From positions 33,169-97,168 of IMG/VR virus record IMGVR_UViG_2974540528_000001: a stretch of DNA of 64,000 nt; one strand, given 5' to 3'. The stretch is from a virus. Its lineage: Duplodnaviria; Heunggongvirae; Uroviricota; Caudoviricetes. The position numbers were made by a program, and so were the translations under genes. The notes under the pieces are model-generated. The model was not told the DNA's origin and searched no databases. It saw only the letters and a program-made list of their open reading frames with translations. This document shows positions 2,463 through 35,022 of this stretch, one piece after another (within the stretch, counting starts at the first letter, position 1; every line of letters begins with the position of its first letter).

Positions 2463-3458
2463 TTAGGCAGTTTTGCGAGCGCGAGCAGCTTCTAGAGCTT
2501 TCTGCACGTTAGCTTTAAGAACATCTTCGGCGGACTTAGCTAGGTCTTCAGTAACAACCTCTTGGTTGATACCATTTTCCTGAGTACCGAACTCTTTCTT
2601 CACAGTTTCAACTTCTGTTTCCAGTTCGCTAATACGAGCTTGGGCTTTTTCCAGAAGAGCTACCACTGGGGCGTTAGCTTTTTCAATGATGAAGTCAGCA
2701 AGAGATTCATGGTCTTCTTCAGCGGCAAAAGTAAAACCTTTGGCTTTTGTAAGAGCATTTTTCTTTTCTGCTTCAACAGCAGCCTTGATAATCAGTTCTG
2801 CTTGGGCATTTTTTGCATTAGCTTCTTCAAGCTTTTTAACCAGGTCCAGGTACTCCTGGGATTTGGTTACATCAACAGTATCGGACACAGAGGTCTCCTT
2901 GTTTTCAATTGTATTTTGAACAGGTACGTCTGGTTTAGCAGCGTCCTTGATGACCTCAGTCTCCTGAGTGTCTTTGGCATCAAAAATGACACCGTGCTCT
3001 GCAACACCCTTCTCAAACATCTGTTGGAGTTTGATTAGTTCATATTGCTTCACAAGGTCCAGCTCTTCACCTGCATTTGCAGCTTTGGCGATAGAGATGG
3101 ACTCCATCTTCGATTCTAACCATTCTTGGTTATCATCATTCCAACGTTGCAGCCATTCATCATCAGGATTTTCAGCAGCAGCGTTTTCCAGTTCTGTTTC
3201 GAAGCCCAAAAGTTTGGCAAGGAGTTCAGCATCACTACTCCACATATCGAAGAAGCGACGAAGGAATTCTTCAAAGCTCATATCGACAGTAACTTGGCGA
3301 AGTGCCTTAACCACGTCTTTGGTAATCTGTTCAGGTGCAAGGTCAGACTTCATCAGAAGACTAACCGGACGCATATTTGCAGAATAACCTTGACTCTCGT
3401 GGCAGAGTGCGATACCCTTATCCTTAATAGTTTTGGCCTTGACTACGAGTGCGCTCAT
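2463..3458 (-). CDS. putative scaffolding protein
   Basis: 331 aa, highly acidic, long predicted coiled-coil (EELDLVKQYELIKLQQMFEK, EEANAKNAQAELIIKAAVEAEKK); sits between protease-like gene and capsid gene; start overlaps upstream gene stop. Confidence 0.5.
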   Translation of the reverse strand: MSALVVKAKTIKDKGIALCHESQGYSANMRPVSLLMKSDLAPEQITKDVVKALRQVTVDMSFEEFLRRFFDMWSSDAELLAKLLGFETELENAAAENPDDEWLQRWNDDNQEWLESKMESISIAKAANAGEELDLVKQYELIKLQQMFEKGVAEHGVIFDAKDTQETEVIKDAAKPDVPVQNTIENKETSVSDTVDVTKSQEYLDLVKKLEEANAKNAQAELIIKAAVEAEKKNALTKAKGFTFAAEEDHESLADFIIEKANAPVVALLEKAQARISELETEVETVKKEFGTQENGINQEVVTEDLAKSAEDVLKANVQKALEAARARKTA

Positions 3459-4084
3459 TCGTTTTCCTCGGCAATCTCAATCCCGAAATCGAGTCCGGTG
3501 ATTTCACCAGTCTCCTTGTCTGTGTAGCCAGAGCATTGAATGCTCAGTCCACCGACAGCGTTGGCCTTTTTCAAGAGCCACAGTTCAGGATCATTGTATT
3601 TAACCTTAGCTACCCAGGTGCCAGCTTTAATGATTTGCTCGCTACCGATAACCACGACATCAAACTCTTCTTGAATCCAAGTCTTCTCGATGGTAAAGGC
3701 ATCAGTCTCGACAATGTGGAACAGGTTCTCTTTAACAAGACCAGCCGCTCGCGCAGCATCGAAACTTTCCTTACCTTTGACGATTGTCTCTGGAGACATC
3801 CATTCACCGTGGGCATCCCTAGTGTTTGGTTCATAAATGACTTCGTAAGAAATCATTTGTTCTCCAGCATCTTTGACAACAGATACAGGCTTGGCATTCT
3901 TTTGAATTGCTGTCTTCTTCAGCCCTACATGGAGTACATCTTTAGATGCTTTCTCAATAGCGGCTTCAGGAGATAGGCCTGAATCAATCAGGCCATTTGC
4001 GAGAACCAGCACCTTGCTCTTCTGAATGAGAGACAGATTCGATACTGATGCAGGAAGGTCAGCAATACTTGAGTATTTCATCAT
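3455..4084 (-). CDS. putative prohead (head maturation) protease
   Basis: 209-aa ORF immediately after portal gene; position typical of HK97-type prohead protease; no catalytic motif confirmed. Confidence 0.4.
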   Translation of the reverse strand: MMKYSSIADLPASVSNLSLIQKSKVLVLANGLIDSGLSPEAAIEKASKDVLHVGLKKTAIQKNAKPVSVVKDAGEQMISYEVIYEPNTRDAHGEWMSPETIVKGKESFDAARAAGLVKENLFHIVETDAFTIEKTWIQEEFDVVVIGSEQIIKAGTWVAKVKYNDPELWLLKKANAVGGLSIQCSGYTDKETGEITGLDFGIEIAEENE

Positions 4085-24195: not shown

Positions 24196-25126
24196 AAAAC
24201 TGGTAACCAAAAAGACTTACACCGAAGGCCCGTTCGCGGGTCTGTCTGTGCTGAAGTATAAGAACAATGTGTTCTGGGATAACCTGTGGCATACTGACCC
24301 ACGCCTGCTTGAGTGCCGTGGCATGGTTGTTGATTCAGAAGACAACGTGATTATCTGGCCTTTCACTAAGATTTTCAACCGCTTCGAGAATGGAACTGAC
24401 CTTCCTCTTGACAAACCGGTTATTTGTTCCCGCAAGGTCAATGGTTTTATGGCTACAGCGGCAATACACAAAGACAAGCTCCTCGTTTCAACAACAGGGA
24501 CATTGGATTCTGAGTTTTCAGAATTGGCTCGTAAGTACCTCGAAAAAATGAATTTTGATCTGATTTCTTTCCGTGAAGATTACACTTTCATTTTCGAAAT
24601 ATGCGATAGCAGCGACCCACACATTGTGGAAGAGAAAGAAGGTGCTTATCTGATTGGTGTCCGTGACCTCGCTTTAAACGGTGTTATGGTTGAAGAGCAC
24701 AAACTTGATCGCATCGCTGAAGTGATCGGTGCAAAACGTCCTCAATGGGATGTCCGTGCATTTGGCGATGTCGTTGCAGCCAGTCATGCTGTTAGCCACG
24801 AAGGTTTTGTTGTCCGAAATATCGGGACAGATGACGAAAATAGCGAACTACTTTTGAAAATCAAGTCCCCACATTACCTGGCGAAGAAATTCCTGATGCG
24901 TGGAGGTGATAACAAGTGGGATATGATCTGGGATAACCCGAAAGAGGCCAAGAAGCGTATTGACGAAGAGTATTACGAGTTGCTAGACCATATTCGTGAG
25001 TATTACTCTAAAGATGTTTGGTCCGCGATGGATTCTCAAAAACGACGTCAGGTTGTTGAAGATTACTTCGCTATCGAAGACATGTTTGATCGTGGTAGTC
25101 GTTTTTATGTTGGGGTTCCAAAATGA
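24164..25126 (+). CDS. RNA-ligase-like nucleotidyltransferase (covalent nucleotidyltransferase superfamily)
   Basis: 320 aa; motif-I-like lysine in ICSRKVNGFMATA (KxNG as in Trl1-type RNA ligases); RBS GAAGGAGAGAACATG. Confidence 0.5.
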   Translation: MKFNVDDLVAKKLVTKKTYTEGPFAGLSVLKYKNNVFWDNLWHTDPRLLECRGMVVDSEDNVIIWPFTKIFNRFENGTDLPLDKPVICSRKVNGFMATAAIHKDKLLVSTTGTLDSEFSELARKYLEKMNFDLISFREDYTFIFEICDSSDPHIVEEKEGAYLIGVRDLALNGVMVEEHKLDRIAEVIGAKRPQWDVRAFGDVVAASHAVSHEGFVVRNIGTDDENSELLLKIKSPHYLAKKFLMRGGDNKWDMIWDNPKEAKKRIDEEYYELLDHIREYYSKDVWSAMDSQKRRQVVEDYFAIEDMFDRGSRFYVGVPK

Positions 25127-25467
25127 TTATCTGGCTTGATGACCTGAGAGATCCAAAAGACTACGGGTATCCTGATGCCTTGTGGTTCAAGACCTCTCAG
25201 AAATTTATGGACTTTCTGGACAACAGGTCAAAGTTCTATCGTTATGTCACAGAGTGGCATTTCGATAATGACCTTGGTGAAGAGTCAGAAATGGAGGGCT
25301 ATGACTGCCTGTTGGCCTTGGAAGAGAAGCTTGTGTATGGAAAACTTCCTGTGCATGATGCTAAACTCTATGTCCATACGTCTAACCCTTCTGCGGCACA
25401 AAAGTTCATGCTTGCAAAAGAGAGCTTCTTGAAGTATCGTATCACGATCTTAAGAAACAATTACTGA
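25123..25467 (+). CDS. hypothetical protein
   Basis: 114-aa ORF overlapping the ligase-like gene stop. Confidence 0.4.
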   Translation: MIIWLDDLRDPKDYGYPDALWFKTSQKFMDFLDNRSKFYRYVTEWHFDNDLGEESEMEGYDCLLALEEKLVYGKLPVHDAKLYVHTSNPSAAQKFMLAKESFLKYRITILRNNY

Positions 25468-25476
25468 GGAGAAGAG

Positions 25477-25881
25477 ATGGAAAAGACTCTGATTATCCTG
25501 CGTGGTGTGTCTGGTGCTGGTAAGTCTACAGTTGCTGAAACAATCGCGGGTAAAGCATGGCCTGTATTTGAGGCCGATAAATACCATTATCGGGACGGGG
25601 TTTACGACTGGAAGCCTGAAAACATGGCTGTTGCTCATAAGTGGTGTCAAGAACAGGTACGTGAGGCTATGGTGTGCCGTATTGCAAAAATTATCGTATC
25701 CAACACTTCGACAACAGAGAAGGAACTAAAACCCTACATTGCCCTTGCTGATGAGCACGGATACCAAGTTATTAGCTTGGTGGTCGAGAATAGGCATGGT
25801 AATGATTCTATTCACAATGTTCCGCAGGAAACTCGTGATGCTCAAGAGCTTCGTCTGCGTAACTCATTGAAATTACAGTAA
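25477..25881 (+). CDS. P-loop polynucleotide-kinase-like protein (T4 Pnk kinase-domain-like)
   Basis: 134 aa; Walker A LRGVSGAGKSTVA at N-terminus; small AAA_33/Pnk-like kinase architecture. Confidence 0.55.
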   Translation: MEKTLIILRGVSGAGKSTVAETIAGKAWPVFEADKYHYRDGVYDWKPENMAVAHKWCQEQVREAMVCRIAKIIVSNTSTTEKELKPYIALADEHGYQVISLVVENRHGNDSIHNVPQETRDAQELRLRNSLKLQ

Positions 25882-25889
25882 GGAAAGAT

Positions 25890-26114
25890 ATGTATAAAGG
25901 AAATAACCTACGGGAATCGTTCGAAAATTGGTGGGACTCTCTTAGCGATCCTTGGTCAACACCAGAAGCAAAATCTGCTGCATGGGAAGCCTGGAAGTTT
26001 TCAAATTTACGAGTTCTTAATAAAATTCGTTATATGAAAGGTATTACCGAGCGGTGCAATGGTTATAATGAGGCTATGAATGAGATAAATAATGTTATAG
26101 GGGAAAATCCATGA
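25890..26114 (+). CDS. hypothetical small protein
   Basis: 74-aa ORF with RBS AAGGAAAG upstream. Confidence 0.35.
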   Translation: MYKGNNLRESFENWWDSLSDPWSTPEAKSAAWEAWKFSNLRVLNKIRYMKGITERCNGYNEAMNEINNVIGENP

Positions 26115-26887
26115 GACGTCTTATCGTTATAAGTGGTGCTGGCTTCTCTGCGGAGAGTGGTGTACGTACATTCCGCACAGATACTGAATCTGGTAAAGCC
26201 CTGTGGGATGAATACGACCTTGAGGAGGTTTGTAACATACACGCCTTCCGTGGTAACTTCTACCATAAAACGCACATGTTTTATAACAAGCGTCGTGCAG
26301 AGTTACCAACGGTACATCCGAATGCGGCGCATCTTCGCGTGGCTGAGTGGTACAGACGTTATCCTGGGCAGGTTGTTAACATGACAACTAACGTTGATGA
26401 CCTTCTGGAACGTGCGGGTGTCCCTAAAGAAGATACTCTTTACATACATGGTTATCTGAAAGAGATCCTTGTTAAAGATGCTTTCACCAAGAAGATAAAG
26501 GTTGTCGATATTGGCTACGACCAAATTGATCCTGATGATTATGATTGGTGTAAACCAAACGTAATTTTCTTTGGTGAAAATGCTCCGGCGTATGGACCTA
26601 TGTCTGATACCCTGGAGTCTTTAGGAAGCCAAGATCTTGTAATTGTTGTTGGGTGCTCAAACACGGTAATCAACTTCAACTGGGAGTTGTTCCCTGCGGT
26701 TATGCGGGGGACCAAAGTTGTTGTTGTTAATCCTGCTATTAGGTATGATGAACAAATGATGTATGAGAATGCGGGTGTTCTTGTATATCGTACCGGAGCT
26801 GTTGATGCCTTTAATAATCCCGGCCTTATCAAGATAGTTGAGAATCACCTTGAAGGTAAGACACCATTGCAAAGCAAGGAGAAATAA
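26111..26887 (+). CDS. Sir2-family protein (sirtuin-like, zinc-less)
   Basis: 258 aa; sirtuin motifs ISGAGFSAESGVRTFR, TTNVDDLLERAG, catalytic HG in LYIHGY, PNVIFFGE and VVGCSN; no CxxC zinc-ribbon. Confidence 0.8.
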   Translation: MRRLIVISGAGFSAESGVRTFRTDTESGKALWDEYDLEEVCNIHAFRGNFYHKTHMFYNKRRAELPTVHPNAAHLRVAEWYRRYPGQVVNMTTNVDDLLERAGVPKEDTLYIHGYLKEILVKDAFTKKIKVVDIGYDQIDPDDYDWCKPNVIFFGENAPAYGPMSDTLESLGSQDLVIVVGCSNTVINFNWELFPAVMRGTKVVVVNPAIRYDEQMMYENAGVLVYRTGAVDAFNNPGLIKIVENHLEGKTPLQSKEK

Positions 26888-28188
26888 TGCAACAAGTAAA
26901 CAGTACACTGTACGCCCTTAATAAAGATGGTTCTTTCCAGTGTTGGAAGGTGTTTATTGCTGGTAATCAGGTAGTTGTAGAGTTTGGCAAGGTTGGTGGT
27001 AAGAAGCAACAAAAGGTTACCACCTGTGAACCGAAGAACGTTGGACGTTCTAACGAAACCACCGCAGAACAGCAGGCATTGGCTGAGGCCGTTTCCAAAT
27101 GGGAGAAACAGGTTCGCCTTGGATATCGTGACGATACAAGCAAGCTTGAACAGGAAGAGAACTTCTCCCCAATGCTGGCACATGATGCAATTAAACGTTA
27201 TAAATCAATAATTTATCCAGCATACGTACAGCCAAAGCTCGATGGTGTACGTGCTCTGGTTACTCTTGATGCAGATGGCTTCCCACAATTCAATAGTCGT
27301 GGTAACAAACTGTATCCTGTACCGCTTGATTCTGAGTTGTCTAAACAGGTTAAATCCCTTTCTGAGCATTCAGGGTTTGACAAATTCGATGGGGAGCTGT
27401 ACATTCATGGTCTGAGTCTGCAAAAGATTGTTGCCCTCGCTAAGAAGTGGCGTACACCAGAGCAGATTGAAGAAGAGATTGAAAAGGACTATCAGGGGGA
27501 TATCAAGCGTCGTAACAAAGCACTTTCTGACGGCGAGCCTGTCTGGAAAGACTTCAATGGCGATGTTTGGGCTACGGCTATTTTCCCAGTAAAGGATGTT
27601 GATCGCTATAGCGGTTACTCCAGCCTTGACCTTGAGTACCATATCTTCGACATTCCTGTGAATGCAGGAAGTCCTTGGTATTCAACGGATCATGATAAGA
27701 CACGTCACCAAGACCTCTTATCCGTTGCTGAAGCTGTAGAGTGTGAACTTGAAGTACCTCTTATTAACATTGTTCATGGTATTGTTGTCTCTTGTGAGAG
27801 AGAGGTTAAATGGTCCATCGGTAAATATATGGAGAGGGGGTTTGAAGGTTCTATTGTCAGAAACTTCAAAGGCTTGTATGAATTTGGACAGCGTTCATCA
27901 GACCTTCTAAAATGGAAATTGTTCCAAGATGGCGAGGCTAAAGTCCTTGATTCTGTGGAAGATAAGAACGGTGAGGGTGTCCTGCTTTGTGAAGAGAAAG
28001 ATGGTACACGTTTCAACTGTAAAATGAAGGGAACCCATGCAGAGAGATCTCAGGAACGAATGCTCCTGCTGGTGGGTAAGTTTATTAACTTCACGTTCCA
28101 GGCTAGAACTGATGATGGTGTTCCTCAGTTCCCTGTGGGCCAAAGCGTTCGTGAACTAGATACATTAACATGGGAACCTAATTATTAG
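26887..28188 (+). CDS. ATP-dependent DNA ligase with N-terminal WGR domain
   Basis: 433 aa; N-terminal WGR-like signature (CWKVFIAGNQVVVEFGKVGGKKQ...KVQKGY-like RLGYRD); ligase motif I KLDGVRALV; start ATG overlaps the Sir2 stop. Confidence 0.75.
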   Translation: MQQVNSTLYALNKDGSFQCWKVFIAGNQVVVEFGKVGGKKQQKVTTCEPKNVGRSNETTAEQQALAEAVSKWEKQVRLGYRDDTSKLEQEENFSPMLAHDAIKRYKSIIYPAYVQPKLDGVRALVTLDADGFPQFNSRGNKLYPVPLDSELSKQVKSLSEHSGFDKFDGELYIHGLSLQKIVALAKKWRTPEQIEEEIEKDYQGDIKRRNKALSDGEPVWKDFNGDVWATAIFPVKDVDRYSGYSSLDLEYHIFDIPVNAGSPWYSTDHDKTRHQDLLSVAEAVECELEVPLINIVHGIVVSCEREVKWSIGKYMERGFEGSIVRNFKGLYEFGQRSSDLLKWKLFQDGEAKVLDSVEDKNGEGVLLCEEKDGTRFNCKMKGTHAERSQERMLLLVGKFINFTFQARTDDGVPQFPVGQSVRELDTLTWEPNY

Positions 28189-28243
28189 CGTATATAATGT
28201 CGGCATAAATGATTCTTCTACACCAGTCTACTCAAATGGAAAC

Positions 28244-28780
28244 ATGGATGTCTATTACTCAAGATGGAAAGACATCCTTAAAAGATGCTATTCTGAAAGC
28301 TTTCATGCAAACAACCCTTCCTACATTGGATGCTCTGTTTGTGAAGAATGGAAAACATTTTCTATCTTTAAGGCTTGGTTAGTAGGTTCTGGATTTGATG
28401 GAACACAGGCTATTGATAAAGACCTTTTGTTCAGGGGTAACAAATTGTACAGTCCAGAAACTTGTGTTTTGATTGATTCAGAACTTAACTCTTTTTTAGC
28501 GATTGGCGGTAGAGGTTCTCACTTGCCCCACGGGGTTGGTTTACAAGGCGGTAAATGTGTAAAACCTTATACAGCAAAGATTAAGGACTCTGTTAAGACA
28601 GAGTATATTGGAAGCTATGAGACAGCAATGGATGCTCATAAGGCTTGGCAAAATAGAAAATATCAGGCAGCATGTAATCTTTCTTTAAGGTATGATGACC
28701 CAATTAGAGCATACATTGTAAACGCAGCAAATAGGATTTTAGAAGATATAGAAAACAATAGACAGACAAAGGAGATATAA
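28244..28780 (+). CDS. AP2-domain protein (homing-endonuclease-associated DNA-binding fold), paralog A
   Basis: 178 aa; C-terminal AP2-like segment GVGLQGGKCVKPYTAKI...YIGSYETAMDAHKAW; shares an N-terminal domain with the ORF at 52463-53137. Confidence 0.5.
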   Translation: MDVYYSRWKDILKRCYSESFHANNPSYIGCSVCEEWKTFSIFKAWLVGSGFDGTQAIDKDLLFRGNKLYSPETCVLIDSELNSFLAIGGRGSHLPHGVGLQGGKCVKPYTAKIKDSVKTEYIGSYETAMDAHKAWQNRKYQAACNLSLRYDDPIRAYIVNAANRILEDIENNRQTKEI

Positions 28781-29241
28781 TGGGATTTTATCGTAAAAAA
28801 CCTGTAGAGGTTGAAGCACATAAGTTTGACGGGTCGTCAACCAGCGCAGGGCAGATCCATAATTGGATGGAAACTGGTGTGTGGAAGGACTCCGAAATCC
28901 ACACTCGTGATTGTGGTCGTACTGTAGATATAAAAACCCCAGAGGGGGTGGTTGTAGCCTCTGCTGGGGATTATGTGATTAAAGGGGTGGCTGGAGAATT
29001 CTATCCTTGCAAATCAGAAATTTTCCATGCAACATATGACCCGCTGGAAGACACTGATCGGGAACCTGGGAACTACCCAGCTAAAGCAATCCGTAAGGGT
29101 GATGAGATCATGTTTTGCGGAAAGGTTTATACCGTAACGAATACTGGTGCGATGGGGGAGGATGTTATCCTGACTCTCGGCGATGGTTCCCAAATCCCTG
29201 TGCGCCCTGATACTCAAATTATCGTAACAAAGGCACAGTAA
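28780..29241 (+). CDS. hypothetical protein
   Basis: 153 aa; start overlaps upstream stop. Confidence 0.4.
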   Translation: MGFYRKKPVEVEAHKFDGSSTSAGQIHNWMETGVWKDSEIHTRDCGRTVDIKTPEGVVVASAGDYVIKGVAGEFYPCKSEIFHATYDPLEDTDREPGNYPAKAIRKGDEIMFCGKVYTVTNTGAMGEDVILTLGDGSQIPVRPDTQIIVTKAQ

Positions 29242-29242
29242 A

Positions 29243-29593
29243 ATGATCTGGTATTGGCTGGCGCTACTAGGCGCATCATTTGTAACAGGAGGCGGCATTT
29301 ATGCCGCTTACAGATTCCGAAAAGATAAGCTGGATGATTTCTTTGACTGGGTTGCTGGAAAGGTTAAACGTCTGCTGATCATCTGGGTATTTGTTATGGG
29401 CCTTGTTACGCTGGCCCTTACTGTCCCATTATGGCATACTATGACTTGTCAGTTCGACGGCTGGGCCGCGAATACAGAGACCAGTTATTCATGGTACAAA
29501 TCAACCTGCCTGTATAAAAGCAAGACAGGGGCATGGCTACCTTTAGGTATCAGTCGTGATCAACCGCAAGGAGATGGTGATGCATCAAATTAA
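29243..29593 (+). CDS. hypothetical membrane protein
   Basis: 116 aa with two predicted TM helices. Confidence 0.4.
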   Translation: MIWYWLALLGASFVTGGGIYAAYRFRKDKLDDFFDWVAGKVKRLLIIWVFVMGLVTLALTVPLWHTMTCQFDGWAANTETSYSWYKSTCLYKSKTGAWLPLGISRDQPQGDGDASN

Positions 29594-29834
29594 AGAAAAT
29601 ACTGTAGATTTTGAAGCGCATATCTACGATTCTGCGATGAACGACAACTACAGATGGTCAATTCGTCCAGATCCTGATCTGCCAGGTTCAGTTAACCTTT
29701 CTTACAATGAGTTAGCTCATTATGACAACCGTTCTCGCCAAGGTTATGAACAGCGGGGTATGGTAGGTTTCGATAAAGAAACTTGGGAAAAAATTAAATA
29801 CGCCATCGATGGTGTTTTTGAAAAAACAATTTAG
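29556..29834 (+). CDS. hypothetical protein
   Basis: 92-aa ORF. Confidence 0.3.
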   Translation: MINRKEMVMHQIKENTVDFEAHIYDSAMNDNYRWSIRPDPDLPGSVNLSYNELAHYDNRSRQGYEQRGMVGFDKETWEKIKYAIDGVFEKTI

Positions 29835-29842
29835 GAGATTTA

Positions 29843-30520
29843 ATGAAAGAAGCTTATGATACTCTGAATGCTATGCTGCGCCCAACCTCTCTTGTTAAGT
29901 ATGCGAAACATGTTGTAGATTGGAATTCTGTCGCAGCATCTGCAAAGGGTGAATTTACCCCATTGGGAAAGCAGTGGGAGTTTGTAGGAGAGGAGTTACA
30001 AGAAACCGTTACAGCATTAATCGAAAATGACCGTAAGGAAGTTGTTGATGGAGCGTGTGACTTGTTTGTTGTGGCGTCGTATGCTTATTGGTTGAGTAAT
30101 AACTATTCGCTATCCTCAGATAAATATTTAACTTATAATCCTGACCTTAAGTTTTCTCCTGGTAAAGCTTTGGATGCTTTTGCGAATGATGACTATGAGG
30201 GGATGCTTAAATTGAGCACAGCTTTGTTGTTTGGTCTTGATATGCAATTGCATAAGAACATGCATAGCGTTCTGGAATCTAATGATTCTAAATATCCAAC
30301 ACTTAGTGAAATTCAGTCTTTGCATAAAGACCTTGACTTGGCAAAAGCCCTTGAGGCAGAATGCACCTGTATCGAACAGCGTAATGGTGGACGCTATGAA
30401 GGTGTTCATTTCTCCATTGTTGATGAGAATATGAAAGAAGAGCCACGTGTCGTATTCTTCGACAAAGGCGGTAAAATCATGAAGCCAGGGACTTTCAAAA
30501 AACCAAACATTATTGTTTGA
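29843..30520 (+). CDS. putative MazG-like nucleotide pyrophosphohydrolase
   Basis: 225 aa; acidic EExxE-type helix EFVGEELQETVTALIEND followed by EVVDGACDLF, reminiscent of all-alpha NTP-PPase (MazG/HisE) motifs. Confidence 0.35.
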   Translation: MKEAYDTLNAMLRPTSLVKYAKHVVDWNSVAASAKGEFTPLGKQWEFVGEELQETVTALIENDRKEVVDGACDLFVVASYAYWLSNNYSLSSDKYLTYNPDLKFSPGKALDAFANDDYEGMLKLSTALLFGLDMQLHKNMHSVLESNDSKYPTLSEIQSLHKDLDLAKALEAECTCIEQRNGGRYEGVHFSIVDENMKEEPRVVFFDKGGKIMKPGTFKKPNIIV

Positions 30521-30533
30521 CAATCGTATCTGG
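30506..30533 (+). promoter_or_regulatory. sigma70-type promoter TTGACA-N16-TATAAT
   Basis: Consensus hexamers at 30506-30511 and 30528-30533. Confidence 0.5.
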
Positions 30534-30571
30534 GTCTGTATAATGACCCATCAAGACAAAAGGAGAACGAA

Positions 30572-30796
30572 GTGGAAGAAAATATTGATTATTCTGAAAT
30601 TGTTGCCTTGGCTAAACGCCTTAAAATGACCATCATTAATCGCGGGGCATCTTCCCGTCATGTTATCCGCTTCACGATGAAGCGTCGTTGGGGTGGCGTA
30701 AAGAAATACGCTTATGAATGCACACTCGGCACACTGGTATCTCATGTCAACCAGATCGAGAGAATGGGCGGAAAAATTGTCGGCATTGACAATTGA
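30572..30796 (+). CDS. hypothetical small protein
   Basis: 74-aa ORF with RBS AAAGGAGAACG upstream. Confidence 0.4.
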   Translation: MEENIDYSEIVALAKRLKMTIINRGASSRHVIRFTMKRRWGGVKKYAYECTLGTLVSHVNQIERMGGKIVGIDN

Positions 30797-30799
30797 AGC

Positions 30800-30827
30800 T
30801 TGACAAATAAAACTGAACGGTTATACT
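30800..30827 (+). promoter_or_regulatory. sigma70-type promoter TTGACA-N16-TATACT
   Basis: Hexamers at 30800-30805 and 30822-30827, 30 nt upstream of the ORF at 30859. Confidence 0.5.
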
Positions 30828-30858
30828 GACCACACTAAACCAAACAAAGGAGCAATAT

Positions 30859-31218
30859 ATGCCACGTATGCCAAAAATCAAAATCGAACTGATCACCTCT
30901 CTGCCGTCTGACCCGGTTCAGCGTAAACGCCTGAAAGATAGCGTAACTGAAGTGGTTGATCTCCAGCGTCAAATCGCTGATCTGAAAGACCAGATCAAAG
31001 ATATTCGCTCTGTGGAGAAAGAAACGCATAATATCTCTCCAAAATTCTTCAATAGCCTGGTGAAGCGCGAGTATGATGTTCGCTTCGAAGCCGAAAAGAA
31101 AACTGCTGCATTAGAGGCAGAAAAAGAAGTCTTCACCGAGGCAGATATTCTGTTTGGTCGTGGAACCCCAAATGTTGCACAGACTGAAGCCGATGATGGT
31201 GCTGAGGACACTGAATAA
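30859..31218 (+). CDS. hypothetical protein
   Basis: 119-aa charged helical ORF with RBS AAAGGAGCAATAT upstream. Confidence 0.45.
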   Translation: MPRMPKIKIELITSLPSDPVQRKRLKDSVTEVVDLQRQIADLKDQIKDIRSVEKETHNISPKFFNSLVKREYDVRFEAEKKTAALEAEKEVFTEADILFGRGTPNVAQTEADDGAEDTE

Positions 31219-31418
31219 TGAAATACTACCTTAATGGTGTTGGCCTATTTGTCTTCATCTGCGTCGTATTCGGGTTTGGTGTTCCAACTCTGGTTTCTGC
31301 CAAAGATACAATCAGTGTTATTGGCGGGTTTGCCTTAGTCTTCACTGCCCCGGTTGTCGTATGGTACTGGTTGCGTAAGGTCTTCATTCCGAAGACAAGC
31401 GCTGAAGGAGATCGATAA
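31218..31418 (+). CDS. hypothetical small membrane protein
   Basis: 66 aa with two TM helices. Confidence 0.4.
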   Translation: MKYYLNGVGLFVFICVVFGFGVPTLVSAKDTISVIGGFALVFTAPVVVWYWLRKVFIPKTSAEGDR

Positions 31419-31582
31419 TGTTGCTAAATCTGAAGGCGGCAACTTGGGAAAAGTTGCAGCACTTGGCAAAGTCCAAAGGTAAGTCTGCGGCATCTTATGT
31501 TGCAAAAATCGTAGATGACCACGTTGATGAAAACGTAAAGACTGAGTATAAAATCAAAGAGGAGAAACAAACTAATGCTTAA
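31418..31582 (+). CDS. putative ribbon-helix-helix (CopG/ParD-like) DNA-binding protein
   Basis: 54-aa ORF not in the supplied track (below size cut-off): MLLNLKAATWEKLQHLAKSKGKSAASYVAKIVDDHV... resembles RHH N-terminal beta-strand plus helix; overlaps next gene by 8 nt. Confidence 0.35.
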   Translation: MLLNLKAATWEKLQHLAKSKGKSAASYVAKIVDDHVDENVKTEYKIKEEKQTNA

Positions 31583-32465
31583 GAATATCAAACGCGTAGT
31601 ATTTTCTGGCCTGATCGCCCTGAGTGCAATTGGTCTGACTGGTTGTGAACGTGCAACTGTTCCGGCGGGTTATGTGGGTGTTAAGGTTGACCTGTATGGT
31701 GATGAGAAAGGCGTTCAGCAGCAAGAAGTGGGCGTTGGTAAGTATTGGTTAACCTGGAACGAAGAGATCTATCAGTTCCCGACGTTCAACCAGTTGAACA
31801 ACTACGAACAACCATTTAACTTCCAGACCAAAGATTCTATGACGGTTACTGCGAAGATCGGTGTTGAGTATTACGTTGACCGCTCTAAGGTTACCAAGAT
31901 CTTCCAGACCTACCGTAAAGGCGTCCAGGAGATTACCGATGTCAACATCCGTCAGAATATCTCTGATGCATTGATCAAGGAAGCTGGTACGATGGATATT
32001 GGTACGCTGGCTGGTGATGGTAAATCTCAGCTTCTGGACCGAGTGACCAAGACTCTTAAGCAGAAACTTGACCCGGTAGGTATCGTTATTGTGAAACTGT
32101 CTTACACTGATGACCTTGGTTATCCTCCTCAGGTAACTGCGTCCATCAACGCTAAGATCGAAGCGACTCAGAAAGCGCTGCTGCGTGAAAACGAAATCCA
32201 GCAGACTAAAGCTGAAGCTCAGAAACAAATTGAAGCAGCTCGCGGTGAAGCAGAATCCCAGCGACTGCAAGCTCAGGGCCAGGCAGATGCTAAAGTAGCT
32301 CTGGCAAAAGGTGAAGCAGAATCCATCCAACTGCGTGGTGATGCTCTCCGTAAGAACCCTGAAATCATGCAACTGGAAGCGATCAACAAGTGGGACGGTA
32401 AAACCCCGACCATTATGGGTGGCAACGGTGCAGTACCTTTCGTAAATCTGCCAGCAGGTAAGTAA
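31575..32465 (+). CDS. SPFH/band-7 (prohibitin-like) lipoprotein
   Basis: 296 aa; signal peptide with lipobox LTGC; SPFH-like core; C-terminal Ala/Gln/Glu-rich coiled-coil. Confidence 0.6.
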   Translation: MLKNIKRVVFSGLIALSAIGLTGCERATVPAGYVGVKVDLYGDEKGVQQQEVGVGKYWLTWNEEIYQFPTFNQLNNYEQPFNFQTKDSMTVTAKIGVEYYVDRSKVTKIFQTYRKGVQEITDVNIRQNISDALIKEAGTMDIGTLAGDGKSQLLDRVTKTLKQKLDPVGIVIVKLSYTDDLGYPPQVTASINAKIEATQKALLRENEIQQTKAEAQKQIEAARGEAESQRLQAQGQADAKVALAKGEAESIQLRGDALRKNPEIMQLEAINKWDGKTPTIMGGNGAVPFVNLPAGK

Positions 32466-32467
32466 AG

Positions 32468-32496
32468 GTTGACAAAAGGCCCGGTGATTAGTATCA
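32468..32496 (+). promoter_or_regulatory. sigma70-type promoter TTGACA-N17-TATCAT
   Basis: Hexamers at 32468-32473 and 32491-32496. Confidence 0.45.
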
Positions 32497-32524
32497 TCGG
32501 GTCTCAACTTAATAAAGGAGTCTC

Positions 32525-32749
32525 ATGATGAGTATTCGCAGCTATCTTTTTGGAGTTCTCACAGGTGTGGTTGTGATGTGTCTCTTATTAATCTCTTCCC
32601 CAGCATTTGCCACAGTCAACACACTTTCTTTGGTGGATGAATACACTGATGGAAGCTCCAAAGTCTGCATCTACAGCGACGGTAATCGTACAGAGAGTGT
32701 TGTGAAAGAAGGTGCTGGCTCATGCCCGTCTAAAAAGACTTTCCACTAA
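32525..32749 (+). CDS. hypothetical small membrane/secreted protein
   Basis: 74 aa with N-terminal TM/signal helix; RBS AAAGGAGTCTC upstream. Confidence 0.4.
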   Translation: MMSIRSYLFGVLTGVVVMCLLLISSPAFATVNTLSLVDEYTDGSSKVCIYSDGNRTESVVKEGAGSCPSKKTFH

Positions 32750-32757
32750 GGAGCATA

Positions 32758-32960
32758 TGATGTCTGAAAAGATGATTCAAGTACCTGCCTCCATTATCGC
32801 AGAACTCGTGCCGTATATTAACAGCGGACTACGATCAACTGCTGATGAGATGGGAAAGGCTGGACATACCCCATCCGAAGTAATGTCTGAGGATTATGAC
32901 CGTTTTAACTCCCTTCGTAGGATTCTGAGAGAAAACGGAGTCAGCTATGCGAGTAACTGA
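32758..32960 (+). CDS. hypothetical small protein
   Basis: Start chosen at ATG 32758 after RBS AAGGAGCATATG rather than the track start 32712. Confidence 0.35.
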
Positions 32961-33453
32961 TAAATACGTCTTCTTCTTCACTTACCGGGATATGTTCAGT
33001 AATCACTACCGCCAAGTTATTCCTATTCGTTGTGGTGGTTATGAGTTTTTCACTGTAGAACATTACATGATGTTCCAGAAGGCAATGCTCTTCGATGACA
33101 AAGAAATTGCTTCCCGCATCGCTACGGTTGATAACCCGAATGAGGCCAAAGCTCTTGGTCGTCAGGTAAAAGGTTTCGACAATAACGTCTGGGAAGAGAA
33201 TAGGATGGATATTGTGACTTCAGGCCTTGTATTGAAAATGAAGGCCAACAGATCTGTCCTCGAAGCGGCGCTTGGGCATCGAGATGCAGGGCGTAAGTTT
33301 GTGGAAGCCTCTCCTTATGATGCCATCTGGGGTGTTAAATTAAACGAATATGATACACGTATCGATGATCCTGCCAATTGGCGTGGTTTGAATCTTCTCG
33401 GTGAGTGCTGGGAACGGGCTATTGATATTGTTGTTGCTGCAACGTGGAGGTGA
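32947..33453 (+). CDS. NADAR-domain (YbiA-like) protein
   Basis: 168 aa; NADAR-type motifs FFFTYRDMFSNHYRQ and EFFTVEHYMMFQKAMLFDD. Confidence 0.65.
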   Translation: MRVTDKYVFFFTYRDMFSNHYRQVIPIRCGGYEFFTVEHYMMFQKAMLFDDKEIASRIATVDNPNEAKALGRQVKGFDNNVWEENRMDIVTSGLVLKMKANRSVLEAALGHRDAGRKFVEASPYDAIWGVKLNEYDTRIDDPANWRGLNLLGECWERAIDIVVAATWR

Positions 33454-33454
33454 C

Positions 33455-33892
33455 TTGAAATTAGAGATCGAACTGGTTCCAAAGACAGCGTGGTTTACTA
33501 ATCTTCGATCTCATCTCACCAAAGCCCAGTGGGATGTTGTCAGAAAGAAATGTTATGCAAAAGCCAATTATTGTTGTGAAATTTGTGGTGGTAAAGGGAC
33601 TAAACACCCTGTTGAGTGTCACGAGATTTGGTCATATGCCGACAGTACCATTACCTTAACGGGTCTGATTGCGCTATGCCCCTCTTGTCATGAAGTCAAG
33701 CATATTGGTTTGGCAGGGATCCGTGGTCGTGGTGAAATTGCCATTCGTCACTTTATGAGAGTGAATGAAGTAAGCCGCGCTGTGGCAGAGAAATATGTTA
33801 AGGAAGCGTTTGATTTGTATCATGAACGAAGCAAGCGTGAAAAGTGGGAATTGGATGTCCGGTATTTGGACGAGTATTTGAGTAAAGATTGA
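33455..33892 (+). CDS. HNH endonuclease
   Basis: Track ORF 33401-33892; probable start TTG 33455 after GGAGGTGA RBS; Cys-rich HNH core CCEICGGKG...ECHEIW...CPSCHEVKH. Confidence 0.6.
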   Translation: MKLEIELVPKTAWFTNLRSHLTKAQWDVVRKKCYAKANYCCEICGGKGTKHPVECHEIWSYADSTITLTGLIALCPSCHEVKHIGLAGIRGRGEIAIRHFMRVNEVSRAVAEKYVKEAFDLYHERSKREKWELDVRYLDEYLSKD

Positions 33893-35022
33893 GAGGGCTA
33901 GTGGCATATCCGTATGATAAAGATTGGAAAAACAAAGTAACGAAAGACTGCGTATTAGCTTTGGATCTTGACCAGACATGCTTTGTGTCAGCCGCCGGTG
34001 CTGAAAAGCGTACAATTGAGGTCACTCATATTGAGTCTGGAAGAACAAAGATTTTCCGTAACAGGACTGAATTTTGGGGATCGACAAAGAAAGTTGTCGG
34101 TGGATGGATCAAAGACCAAAACATGAACATGGAGGCGAAGGCAAGGGCCGAAGGCCGAGTGTTTGTACCGTGGGGTCGGGATGACTTCACGATTAAAGAC
34201 ATTCAGGAACCGGAACCTGTAGAAAACTGCCTTCATATACTGAAGACAAAGATCAATGCTATCTTTGAGCACCTTGAGATGGAAAGCAATACCGGGATGG
34301 GTGTACTCGGCGGTGAGGGTAACTTCCGCCTTATGCTTCCAGCTCCAGAGCGTTACAAGGGCAATCGTGAGGATACATTACGCCCACTCCTTCTTCAGGA
34401 AACAAGGGATTATGTTACCCGGAAGTATAACGCTAAGGTGATCAATGGTGTTGAAGCAGATGACTATCTTTCTGTTCTTGCTTATATGGGGTGGGAGAAT
34501 TACCAGAAGACCGGGAAGTTCAACTACATCGTGGCATCGTTTGATAAAGACCAGAAAGGAAACCCTGGGCTTATCTTCGATACTATGCGCGATTCAGAAG
34601 AGAAGACATGGAAGCACCCGATCCCTATGTTGATCGACGATTCGATGGGTGAGATCTGGATGGAAGGTAACAAGGTCAAGGGATGGGGACGTAAGTTCTT
34701 CGGTTACCAGATGCTTTGCGGTGACAGCTCAGATAACATCAAGCCATACCAGTGTTTTGATATCGCTGGACGTTTCGGTGATACGGCGGCATTCAACCTG
34801 ATCGGACACCTTCAGGATGAGAAATCCATGTGGCAAGCGATCATTAACCAATATAAAACCTGGTTCCCGAACGGTGTTGAGTTTACTTCGTGGGACGGCA
34901 CACAACGGAAAATGAGTGCAGGTCAGTGGGCATCTATCATCTTCCAGATGGTCTACATGAAGCGTTCTGCGAATGATAAGACAACCCTTTCAAGTGAGTT
35001 ACGCCGTGTGGGGATCGTATGA
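33889..35022 (+). CDS. 5'-3' exonuclease / flap endonuclease (T5 D15-like)
   Basis: 377 aa; motifs YKGNREDT and GVEADDYLSVLAY match the FEN/RNase H family signatures YKGNR and GVEADD. Confidence 0.7.
   Translation: MRGLVAYPYDKDWKNKVTKDCVLALDLDQTCFVSAAGAEKRTIEVTHIESGRTKIFRNRTEFWGSTKKVVGGWIKDQNMNMEAKARAEGRVFVPWGRDDFTIKDIQEPEPVENCLHILKTKINAIFEHLEMESNTGMGVLGGEGNFRLMLPAPERYKGNREDTLRPLLLQETRDYVTRKYNAKVINGVEADDYLSVLAYMGWENYQKTGKFNYIVASFDKDQKGNPGLIFDTMRDSEEKTWKHPIPMLIDDSMGEIWMEGNKVKGWGRKFFGYQMLCGDSSDNIKPYQCFDIAGRFGDTAAFNLIGHLQDEKSMWQAIINQYKTWFPNGVEFTSWDGTQRKMSAGQWASIIFQMVYMKRSANDKTTLSSELRRVGIV

Follow-up and report, generated by a model that had tools for sequence, protein, structure and literature searches.

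The HflK and HflC proteins of Escherichia coli, which form a cage around FtsH (PDB 7vhq, 7wi3, and 9cz2), and the products of SPFH-NfeD operons such as QmcA-YbbJ (PDB 8z5g) and stomatin-STOPP, in which the SPFH gene is co-transcribed with and adjacent to a gene for a small membrane protein, are the closest described cellular systems to the locus considered here. Annotated SPFH genes also occur in hundreds of phage genomes, that of the model phage N4 among them, and papers up to 2026 call their role unclear; a genome paper from that year states that the reason for the presence of an SPFH gene in phages ‘remains unclear.’ Here, we analyze such a gene in a 64,000-nucleotide (nt) stretch of a phage genome (Caudoviricetes; IMG/VR record IMGVR_UViG_2974540528_000001, positions 33,169 to 97,168), hereafter referred to as the window. 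Positions 31000-33000 of the window are 100% identical to Klebsiella phage vB_KpnM_BIS47 (NC_048656; Vequintavirinae, Mydovirus), a virulent myovirus, which agrees with the lytic context assumed in an initial annotation of the stretch. That annotation grouped the SPFH gene, which encodes 296 amino acids (aa), with a 54-aa open reading frame (ORF) that precedes it and a 74-aa ORF that follows it. All three ORFs are present where they were called (Table 1). However, the conserved partner of the SPFH gene is neither of these two small ORFs but a further upstream gene that encodes a 66-aa hairpin membrane protein and that the initial annotation overlooked.

The SPFH lipoprotein and its conserved neighbor

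The 296-aa product belongs to the SPFH/Band 7 family (Pfam Band_7, PF01145; E = 1.5e-21; 77.7 bits versus a threshold of 23.6; residues 28-215) and matches PHROG 200, ‘lipoprotein,’ at 1.8e-90. The gene itself had been annotated before, as part of a large family of phage genes. The best NCBIfam relative is HflK (3.7e-12), while the closest solved sequences are QmcA (9.4e-5, the best PDB sequence match) and HflC. An AlphaFold2 model (predicted local distance difference test score, pLDDT, of 79) comprises an N-terminal helix, an SPFH domain at residues 26-177, a helix of 76 residues (185-260), and a short helix (262-272). Foldseek searches with this model returned HflC/HflK, prohibitin, stomatin, erlin, QmcA, and flotillin over approximately 265-305 columns, the top match being HflC in the HflK/C cage (E = 2.6e-15). 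In these comparisons the long helix corresponds to the helix that forms the wall of the HflK/C, prohibitin, and stomatin cages. The C-terminal tail includes conserved residues (W273, G275, P278, and P288), and its last 22 residues are disordered in the modeled monomer.

The AlphaFold2 model, the Foldseek matches, and an N-terminal lipobox thus combine an SPFH fold with a long coiled-coil-type helix and an N-terminal anchor. As modeled, the protein has the full architecture of a cage former, namely an anchor, an SPFH domain, an 11-nm wall helix, and a conserved C-terminal cap segment, all of which it shares with HflK and HflC. A Pfam scan found no protease domain in the protein, and the ‘serine protease’ label on some of its homologs most likely derives from the old name ‘membrane protease subunit, stomatin/prohibitin homologue.’ The initial description of a prohibitin-like protein with a lipobox signal peptide and a long C-terminal helix is borne out, as is the overlap of its gene with the preceding 54-aa ORF (8 nt).

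A two-transmembrane (TM) ORF of 55-70 aa lies directly upstream of the SPFH gene, overlapping or adjacent to it, in 84 of 86 phage and prophage loci (80 IMG/VR contigs plus prophages, N4, and BIS47); both exceptions are truncated loci. A scan of bacterial genomes restricted to one genome per species recovered 67 SPFH loci, and in 58 of these a match to the hairpin profile was directly upstream. These observations identify the hairpin gene as the conserved partner, and sole conserved neighbor, of the SPFH gene. An adjacent, co-oriented gene for a membrane protein is likewise the arrangement found in SPFH-NfeD operons.

The hairpin protein of the window carries the motif P23-x-L-V-S27-A-x-D in the turn between its two helices and has a basic C-terminus. 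Among 24 diverse members of the family, Pro23 is invariant and Ser27 nearly so, and the turn reads P-x-L-x-S-S/A. The charged ends of the protein are consistent with a predicted topology in which both termini face inward (N-in, C-in). Pfam assigns no domain to the family, nor does it carry an informative name. A profile of the family (alignment A6) gave a weak match (E = 0.0026) to residues 106-137 of E. coli TatC (VVPLLVSSSLLFYIG..., the start of TM3), where the stretch VVPLLVSSS... has the P-x-L-x-S-S motif in common with the family. Kinship with TatC was considered and set aside, as the match probably reflects transmembrane composition bias.

Homologs of the SPFH protein were identified in 677 of 50,697 phage records. 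The hosts span Gram-negative and Gram-positive bacteria as well as archaea, with members in Staphylococcus, Bacillus, and haloarchaeal viruses. The cassette of the window is the same as gp19-gp20 of phage N4 and SSU5_061-062 of Salmonella phage SSU5 (PHROG 1130 followed by PHROG 200). N4 gp20 carries a lipobox and is 46% identical to the window protein (47% by tblastn), and gp19 is a homologous hairpin that overlaps gp20; the gene downstream of the N4 pair is unrelated to that in the window. Prophages of Salmonella and Serratia encode an SPFH homolog that is 69-73% identical, between genes for an Enc34-type single-stranded DNA-binding protein and DNA polymerase A, and a hairpin homolog of 63-66 aa precedes it with a 4-nt overlap. 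In Avunavirus 18-1-2, also within the Vequintavirinae, the two genes are 13 nt apart.

The pair is not restricted to phages. In 27 genomes of the Dyella group (Rhodanobacteraceae), the hairpin and SPFH genes are syntenic, located between a BlaR1-like M56 peptidase gene and nrdAB. This suggests that the pair is a vertically inherited cellular membrane module in this group. The remaining genome matches came from prophages or from phage-plasmids of the SSU5 type, with examples in Yersinia pestis and Kluyvera. The breadth of hosts, together with the chromosomal copies, argues for a general membrane function and against one that depends on a specific receptor.

More distantly, the MbpV-MbpS pair of Kayvirus (Staphylococcus phages) resembles the cassette in that a small membrane protein gene directly precedes that of an SPFH protein (26% identity). 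It differs in the TM anchor of its SPFH protein, in a partner with a single TM helix and a charged tail, in a locus that adjoins lysis genes, and in its Gram-positive host.

Two unusual copies were also noted. In E. coli and Shigella (L117 and L118, positions 3233-4001), a 768-bp gap separates the hairpin and SPFH genes of the prophage copy. We rejected a cargo gene as the explanation, since an InsA-like ORF marks the gap as an IS1-like insertion; the element occupies the same junction as the 54-aa gene of the window. In a contig of a Heimdallarchaeota metagenome-assembled genome (L161, positions 1693-2157), a single ORF joins a hairpin-like first TM helix and a YLVSAKD motif to SPFH-like sequence, which might reflect a gene fusion, a frameshift, or the binning of a viral contig with this genome.

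Membrane anchoring and possible roles of the pair

We tentatively propose, and judge to be slightly short of an even chance, that the hairpin and SPFH lipoprotein genes together form a functional two-gene cassette that would produce a periplasm-facing SPFH cage or microdomain early in infection. Specifically, the SPFH protein would assemble into an oligomeric ring or cage on the periplasm-facing surface of the cytoplasmic membrane, around or beside the hairpin protein, with the conserved periplasmic turn (P-x-L-x-S-S/A) as the likely contact. The two proteins would create a phage-made membrane microdomain. On the model of HflK/C-FtsH and QmcA-YbbJ, such a microdomain would hold membrane proteins apart or protect them, or it would modulate proteolysis in the membrane. 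In this way, envelope stability and energetics would be preserved while infection proceeds; blocking of a specific receptor would not be expected.

Early expression of both genes is suggested by a near-consensus host-type promoter at 30800 and by coupled start and stop codons. The promoter precedes a chain of four genes (those for a DsbA-like protein, the hairpin protein, the 54-aa ORF, and the SPFH protein) in which stop and start codons overlap; for example, the stop codon of the 119-aa DsbA-like gene overlaps the ATG of the hairpin gene. We consider it improbable that the pair goes further and represents an undescribed, self-contained two-component membrane-caging system with which phages of many lineages wall off part of the host inner membrane early in infection, be it to preserve membrane potential in the face of injection damage or membrane-targeting abortive-infection effectors or to neutralize FtsH. 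If this were the case, the cassette would serve phages generally as a counter-measure at the level of the membrane.

The orientation of the SPFH protein is predicted from its N-terminus. Under PROSITE rule PS51257, a lipoprotein signal has a Lys or Arg within the first seven residues, an uncharged hydrophobic region, and the pattern [LVI][ASTVI][GAS]C, the Cys of which falls at position 15-35. The SPFH protein begins MLKNIKR-VVFSGLIALSAIG-LTG-C24, so that K3, K6, and R7 precede a hydrophobic segment and the lipobox L-T-G-C24, and it is accordingly predicted to be a lipoprotein. Export and lipidation signals would place the body of the protein outside the cytoplasm, on the same side as HflK/C. 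The periplasm-facing topology is thus predicted from a lipoprotein signal peptide here and from an N-terminal signal anchor in homologs; QmcA, in contrast, faces the cytoplasm. Among 118 homologs with at least 54% identity, 64 have a lipobox (LTGC or LSGC in 45 of them), and approximately 41 have an uncleaved TM helix instead.

The proposal is least firm on which membrane the lipid-anchored forms would occupy. In E. coli, Asp at position +2 keeps a lipoprotein in the inner membrane under the Lol rule. The window protein has Glu at this position, which predicts sorting to the outer membrane, apart from the inner-membrane hairpin protein. This is the first of several findings that weigh against the proposed cassette function. 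The Pasteurella multocida prophage-island SPFH protein PM0222 (25-35 kDa) occurs in outer-membrane vesicles (OMVs) and signals via TLR1/2 (PMC9872710), although its membership of the phage SPFH family could not be verified; this is the only experimental work that we found on a prophage SPFH protein. The equivalog cut-offs for HflK and HflC were missed (46.2 versus 159.4 bits for hflK and 26.2 versus 134.4 bits for hflC), and every cassette examined has one SPFH gene rather than the two paralogs of HflK/HflC. The partner also differs from that of SPFH-NfeD operons: NfeD (PF01957) matched none of 24 hairpin proteins, which rules out an NfeD partner at the sequence level; an NfeD OB-fold domain is not possible in a protein of only 55-70 aa; and a PDB profile search at E-values up to 10 detected no similarity to YbbJ. 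In the more distant Bruynoghevirus DL54, Kayvirus, and phiCbK-like phages, the upstream small membrane protein is of another shape. Finally, the literature yielded no functional study or phenotype for the phage SPFH family, only mentions and speculation in genome papers.

The same evidence on anchors bears on an alternative that we regard as unlikely, namely that a Lol-sorted SPFH protein lines the outer membrane on its inner leaflet and alters outer-membrane stability or vesiculation independently of the hairpin protein. Position +2 is Glu in 31, Gly in 13, and Asp in only 5 of the 64 lipobox homologs, which would suit such sorting, as would the location of PM0222 in OMVs. However, the approximately 41 close homologs with an uncleaved TM anchor (54-60% identical) can reside only in the inner membrane, SSU5-type members carry Asp at +2, and a helical hairpin partner, which must be in the inner membrane, is almost always co-encoded.

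A narrower form of the proposed cassette function is that an SPFH cage made by the phage takes the place of host HflK/C, or competes with it, and so inhibits or diverts FtsH, such that phage membrane or regulatory proteins would be protected or the turnover of LpxC and sigma-32 altered. The presence of HflK and HflC among the best NCBIfam and PDB relatives, the top fold match to HflC, and the same predicted periplasmic orientation are compatible with this idea. Moreover, temperate members (prophages and SSU5) could use the cassette as lambda uses Hfl, and an Hfl-like role of an SPFH protein in lysogeny has been raised as speculation for Bruynoghevirus (PMC8540360). Nevertheless, we consider a decoy for FtsH distinctly unlikely. 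QmcA, prohibitin, stomatin, and erlin are just as similar to the phage protein, its scores fall far short of the equivalog thresholds, and it differs from HflK/HflC in its single gene, its lipid rather than TM anchor, its low identity (17-20%), and its 66-aa hairpin partner. In addition, the family extends to viruses of Staphylococcus, Bacillus, and haloarchaea, hosts that lack HflK/C.

The 54-aa and 74-aa reading frames

The 54-aa ORF is a real gene under purifying selection. A Shine-Dalgarno sequence (AAGGAG) lies 7 nt upstream of its start, and the ORF is conserved to 46-49% amino acid identity in Erwinia phages. The proportion of differences was 0.67-0.97 at synonymous sites, which are saturated, and 0.08-0.34 at nonsynonymous sites; the single measurable pair gave a ratio of nonsynonymous to synonymous substitution rates (dN/dS) of 0.05. 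The initial annotation likened its product to ribbon-helix-helix (RHH) DNA-binding proteins, and this similarity was below threshold in every individual test. Pfam RHH_4 (E = 0.04; 14.4 bits versus 25), RHH_5 (E = 0.11; 12.6 bits versus 26), and an NCBIfam RelB-like antitoxin model (8.4e-5; 22.7 bits versus a cut-off of 50) all matched weakly, as did four RHH proteins among six PDB profile matches (AvtR, HP0222, ParG, and FitA; E = 0.3-1.4). With Foldseek, 22 of the 23 best matches were RHH proteins, but with E-values of at least 0.7.

In length and in its succession of a strand-like LLNLK segment, a helix, a G-K-S turn, and a second helix, the ORF resembles RHH proteins such as CopG, Arc, ParG, FitA, AvtR, and RelB-type antitoxins. 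It departs from them in that no model reaches threshold and in that the AlphaFold2 monomer (pLDDT 70) has two helices and does not reproduce the RHH strand. No toxin gene adjoins it, the neighbors being the hairpin and SPFH genes, which differs from a type II antitoxin. These several weak but concordant signals suggest that the product is probably an RHH-like small DNA-binding regulator.

The distribution of the 54-aa gene differs from that of the cassette. It was detected in 66 phage records, and in 10 clusters among 5.8 billion proteins, and is limited to Mydovirus, Seunavirus, and Hena1-type phages, one lineage of the Vequintavirinae, where it lies between the same two neighbors. Avunavirus 18-1-2, N4, and the prophages lack it between their hairpin and SPFH genes. 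A longer homolog (CR3 gp242 and SSBI34 QYC52486) follows the DsbA-like gene in Certrevirus-type phages at a locus that lacks an SPFH gene. In the proposed reading, the 54-aa gene is a lineage-specific passenger of the cassette.

The 74-aa ORF was initially described as a membrane protein under its own promoter. The promoter was recovered (Table 1) and is conserved in Mydovirus and Seunavirus loci. The product, in contrast, is more likely a secreted periplasmic peptide than a membrane protein. Across homologs, a conserved mature part with two cysteines (TL.L.DEY.DG..KVC.YS.G...GSCPSK) is preceded by a variable hydrophobic segment that ends in AFA, AHA, ARA, or VAA, an arrangement indicative of a cleaved Sec signal (AFA|TV in the window). 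The family (PHROG 4641) was found in 161 phage records and is widespread in early regions of the Vequintavirinae and Stephanstirmvirinae. For CR3 gp239, phAPEC8_00122, and SSBI34 QYC52469, the SPFH gene is absent from the locus. Its own promoter and its occurrence in such loci indicate that the 74-aa gene is a separate transcription unit that is not linked to SPFH by inheritance.

A stable RNA hairpin (minimum free energy of -23.1 kcal/mol; z = -4.95) forms after the SPFH stop codon. It was not called in a scan for intrinsic terminators because it lacks a T-run; relatives keep a GC-rich hairpin at this junction, with a T-run in Avunavirus. The promoter at 32469 lies within the RNA hairpin, with its -35 hexamer pairing with downstream bases in the outer stem and its -10 hexamer covering the loop together with the inner stem's 3' arm.

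The secreted peptide that follows the SPFH gene is among the observations that could favor a role as a helper of secretion or lysis, in which an SPFH microdomain would aid Sec-dependent export of phage envelope proteins or set the timing of lysis. In Kayvirus, mbpV-mbpS lies between the endolysin gene and that of a secreted transglycosylase, and the authors who noted the adjacency of the two genes speculated on a Sec-helper role (PMC7150955). We consider such a role highly improbable, since the cassettes of BIS47, N4, SSU5, and the prophages belong to early or replication modules, well away from the lysis genes, and the 74-aa peptide occurs in other phages without SPFH.

Neither small ORF supports the unit that was originally envisaged, in which the 54-aa, SPFH, and 74-aa genes remodel the envelope, exclude superinfecting phages, or act in defense. 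The three genes are not co-inherited, given that the 54-aa ORF is confined to one lineage and that both small ORFs have relatives in phages without SPFH (CR3, SSBI34, and phAPEC8). A PADLOC search with six proteins of the region gave no match for five and only noise for the SPFH protein (SspF, E = 0.024), and no paper linking SPFH to superinfection exclusion or defense was found in the literature searched, so that the initial statement that prophage SPFH proteins had been linked to these roles found no backing. Furthermore, members of the family occur across hosts whose receptors and envelopes are unrelated, and a syntenic pair resides in the chromosomes of Dyella.

Some observations are nonetheless in keeping with exclusion. 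Expression would be early and from host-type promoters, the products are predicted to be in the envelope, and the N4 cassette adjoins gp18, annotated as ‘superinfection exclusion, similar to P22 gp17.’ Imm and Sp of phage T4 are a precedent, being small early membrane proteins that are able to exclude phages. On balance, we find a role of the trio in exclusion or defense very unlikely. The initial annotation was largely right in what it observed and largely wrong in its grouping and functional guess.

Genomic setting and significance

The features of the region are listed in Table 1. A promoter scan identified 10 promoter-like sites, compared with 4.3 +/- 2.1 in shuffled sequences; the three that match the consensus at 11 or 12 of 12 positions are all intergenic and on the + strand. 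For the first gene of the operon, the Pfam Phage_DsbA model scored below threshold (20.9 versus 25 bits). A 252-aa antisense ORF (31749-32507) was assumed to be a shadow of the SPFH reading frame.

Table 1. Features of the SPFH region, in coordinates of the window
Feature	Position	Strand	Evidence or remark
Sigma-70 promoter	30517-30544	+	12/12 match; intergenic; serves the preceding 74-aa ORF (not the one at 32525)
Sigma-70-type promoter, TTGACA-16-TATACT	30800-30827	+	11/12 match; intergenic gap upstream of 30859; heads the four-gene operon
DsbA-like putative transcriptional regulator, 119 aa (operon gene 1)	30859-31218	+	PHROG 639, 4.9e-24; context, outside the module
Two-TM hairpin membrane protein, 66 aa (BIS47_97)	31218-31418	+	PHROG 1130, 1.4e-26
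RHH-like small gene, 54 aa (BIS47_98)	31418-31582	+	Wedged between the hairpin and SPFH genes
SPFH/Band-7 lipoprotein, 296 aa (BIS47_99, annotated ‘lipoprotein’)	31575-32465	+	Pfam, PHROG, NCBIfam, PDB, AlphaFold2, Foldseek
Predicted lipoprotein signal peptide and lipobox L-T-G-C	31575-31646	+	Cys24 codon 31644-31646; read from sequence
SPFH alpha/beta domain, residues 26-177	31650-32105	+	AlphaFold2 secondary structure, pLDDT 82-94
Long helix 185-260 and short helix 262-272, then conserved C-terminal tail	32127-32390	+	AlphaFold2 model
Stable RNA hairpin after the SPFH stop codon	32466-32510	+	Inner 11-bp stem 32478-32503; terminator or stabilizer
Sigma-70-type promoter, TTGACA-17-TATCAT (downstream unit)	32469-32497	+	11/12 match; overlaps the RNA hairpin
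Small, probably exported two-cysteine protein, 74 aa (BIS47_100)	32525-32749	+	PHROG 4641, 2.2e-32; 73 aa from the second ATG

The early region on both sides (window positions of approximately 25000-31000, and 32947-35022) carries genes for an RNA ligase, an ATP-dependent DNA ligase, an exonuclease, two HNH endonucleases, a Sir2-like protein, a NADAR protein, and a MazG-like pyrophosphohydrolase. The presence of Sir2 and NADAR hints at NAD/ADP-ribose counter-defense. A 67-aa ORF (BIS47_101, 32757-32960) matched no PHROG, Pfam, or NCBIfam family and is absent from the approximately 99% identical phage KNP2, where the NADAR gene is directly 3' of the 74-aa ORF. It looks like a strain-specific insertion of approximately 200 bp.

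Relative to the literature searched, a near-universal partner that is a hairpin rather than NfeD, the predicted periplasmic orientation, and a chromosomal counterpart of the pair appear to be new. The cassette is a variant of the theme of operons that combine SPFH with a partner; it is tractable, and there is as yet no evidence of an unusual mechanism. For the phage of the window, these results point to a conserved accessory module and not to a demonstrated defense or exclusion device. For the wider phage family, vague labels such as ‘lipoprotein’ and ‘serine protease’ can be replaced by a defined two-gene system that is testable in N4 and E. coli.

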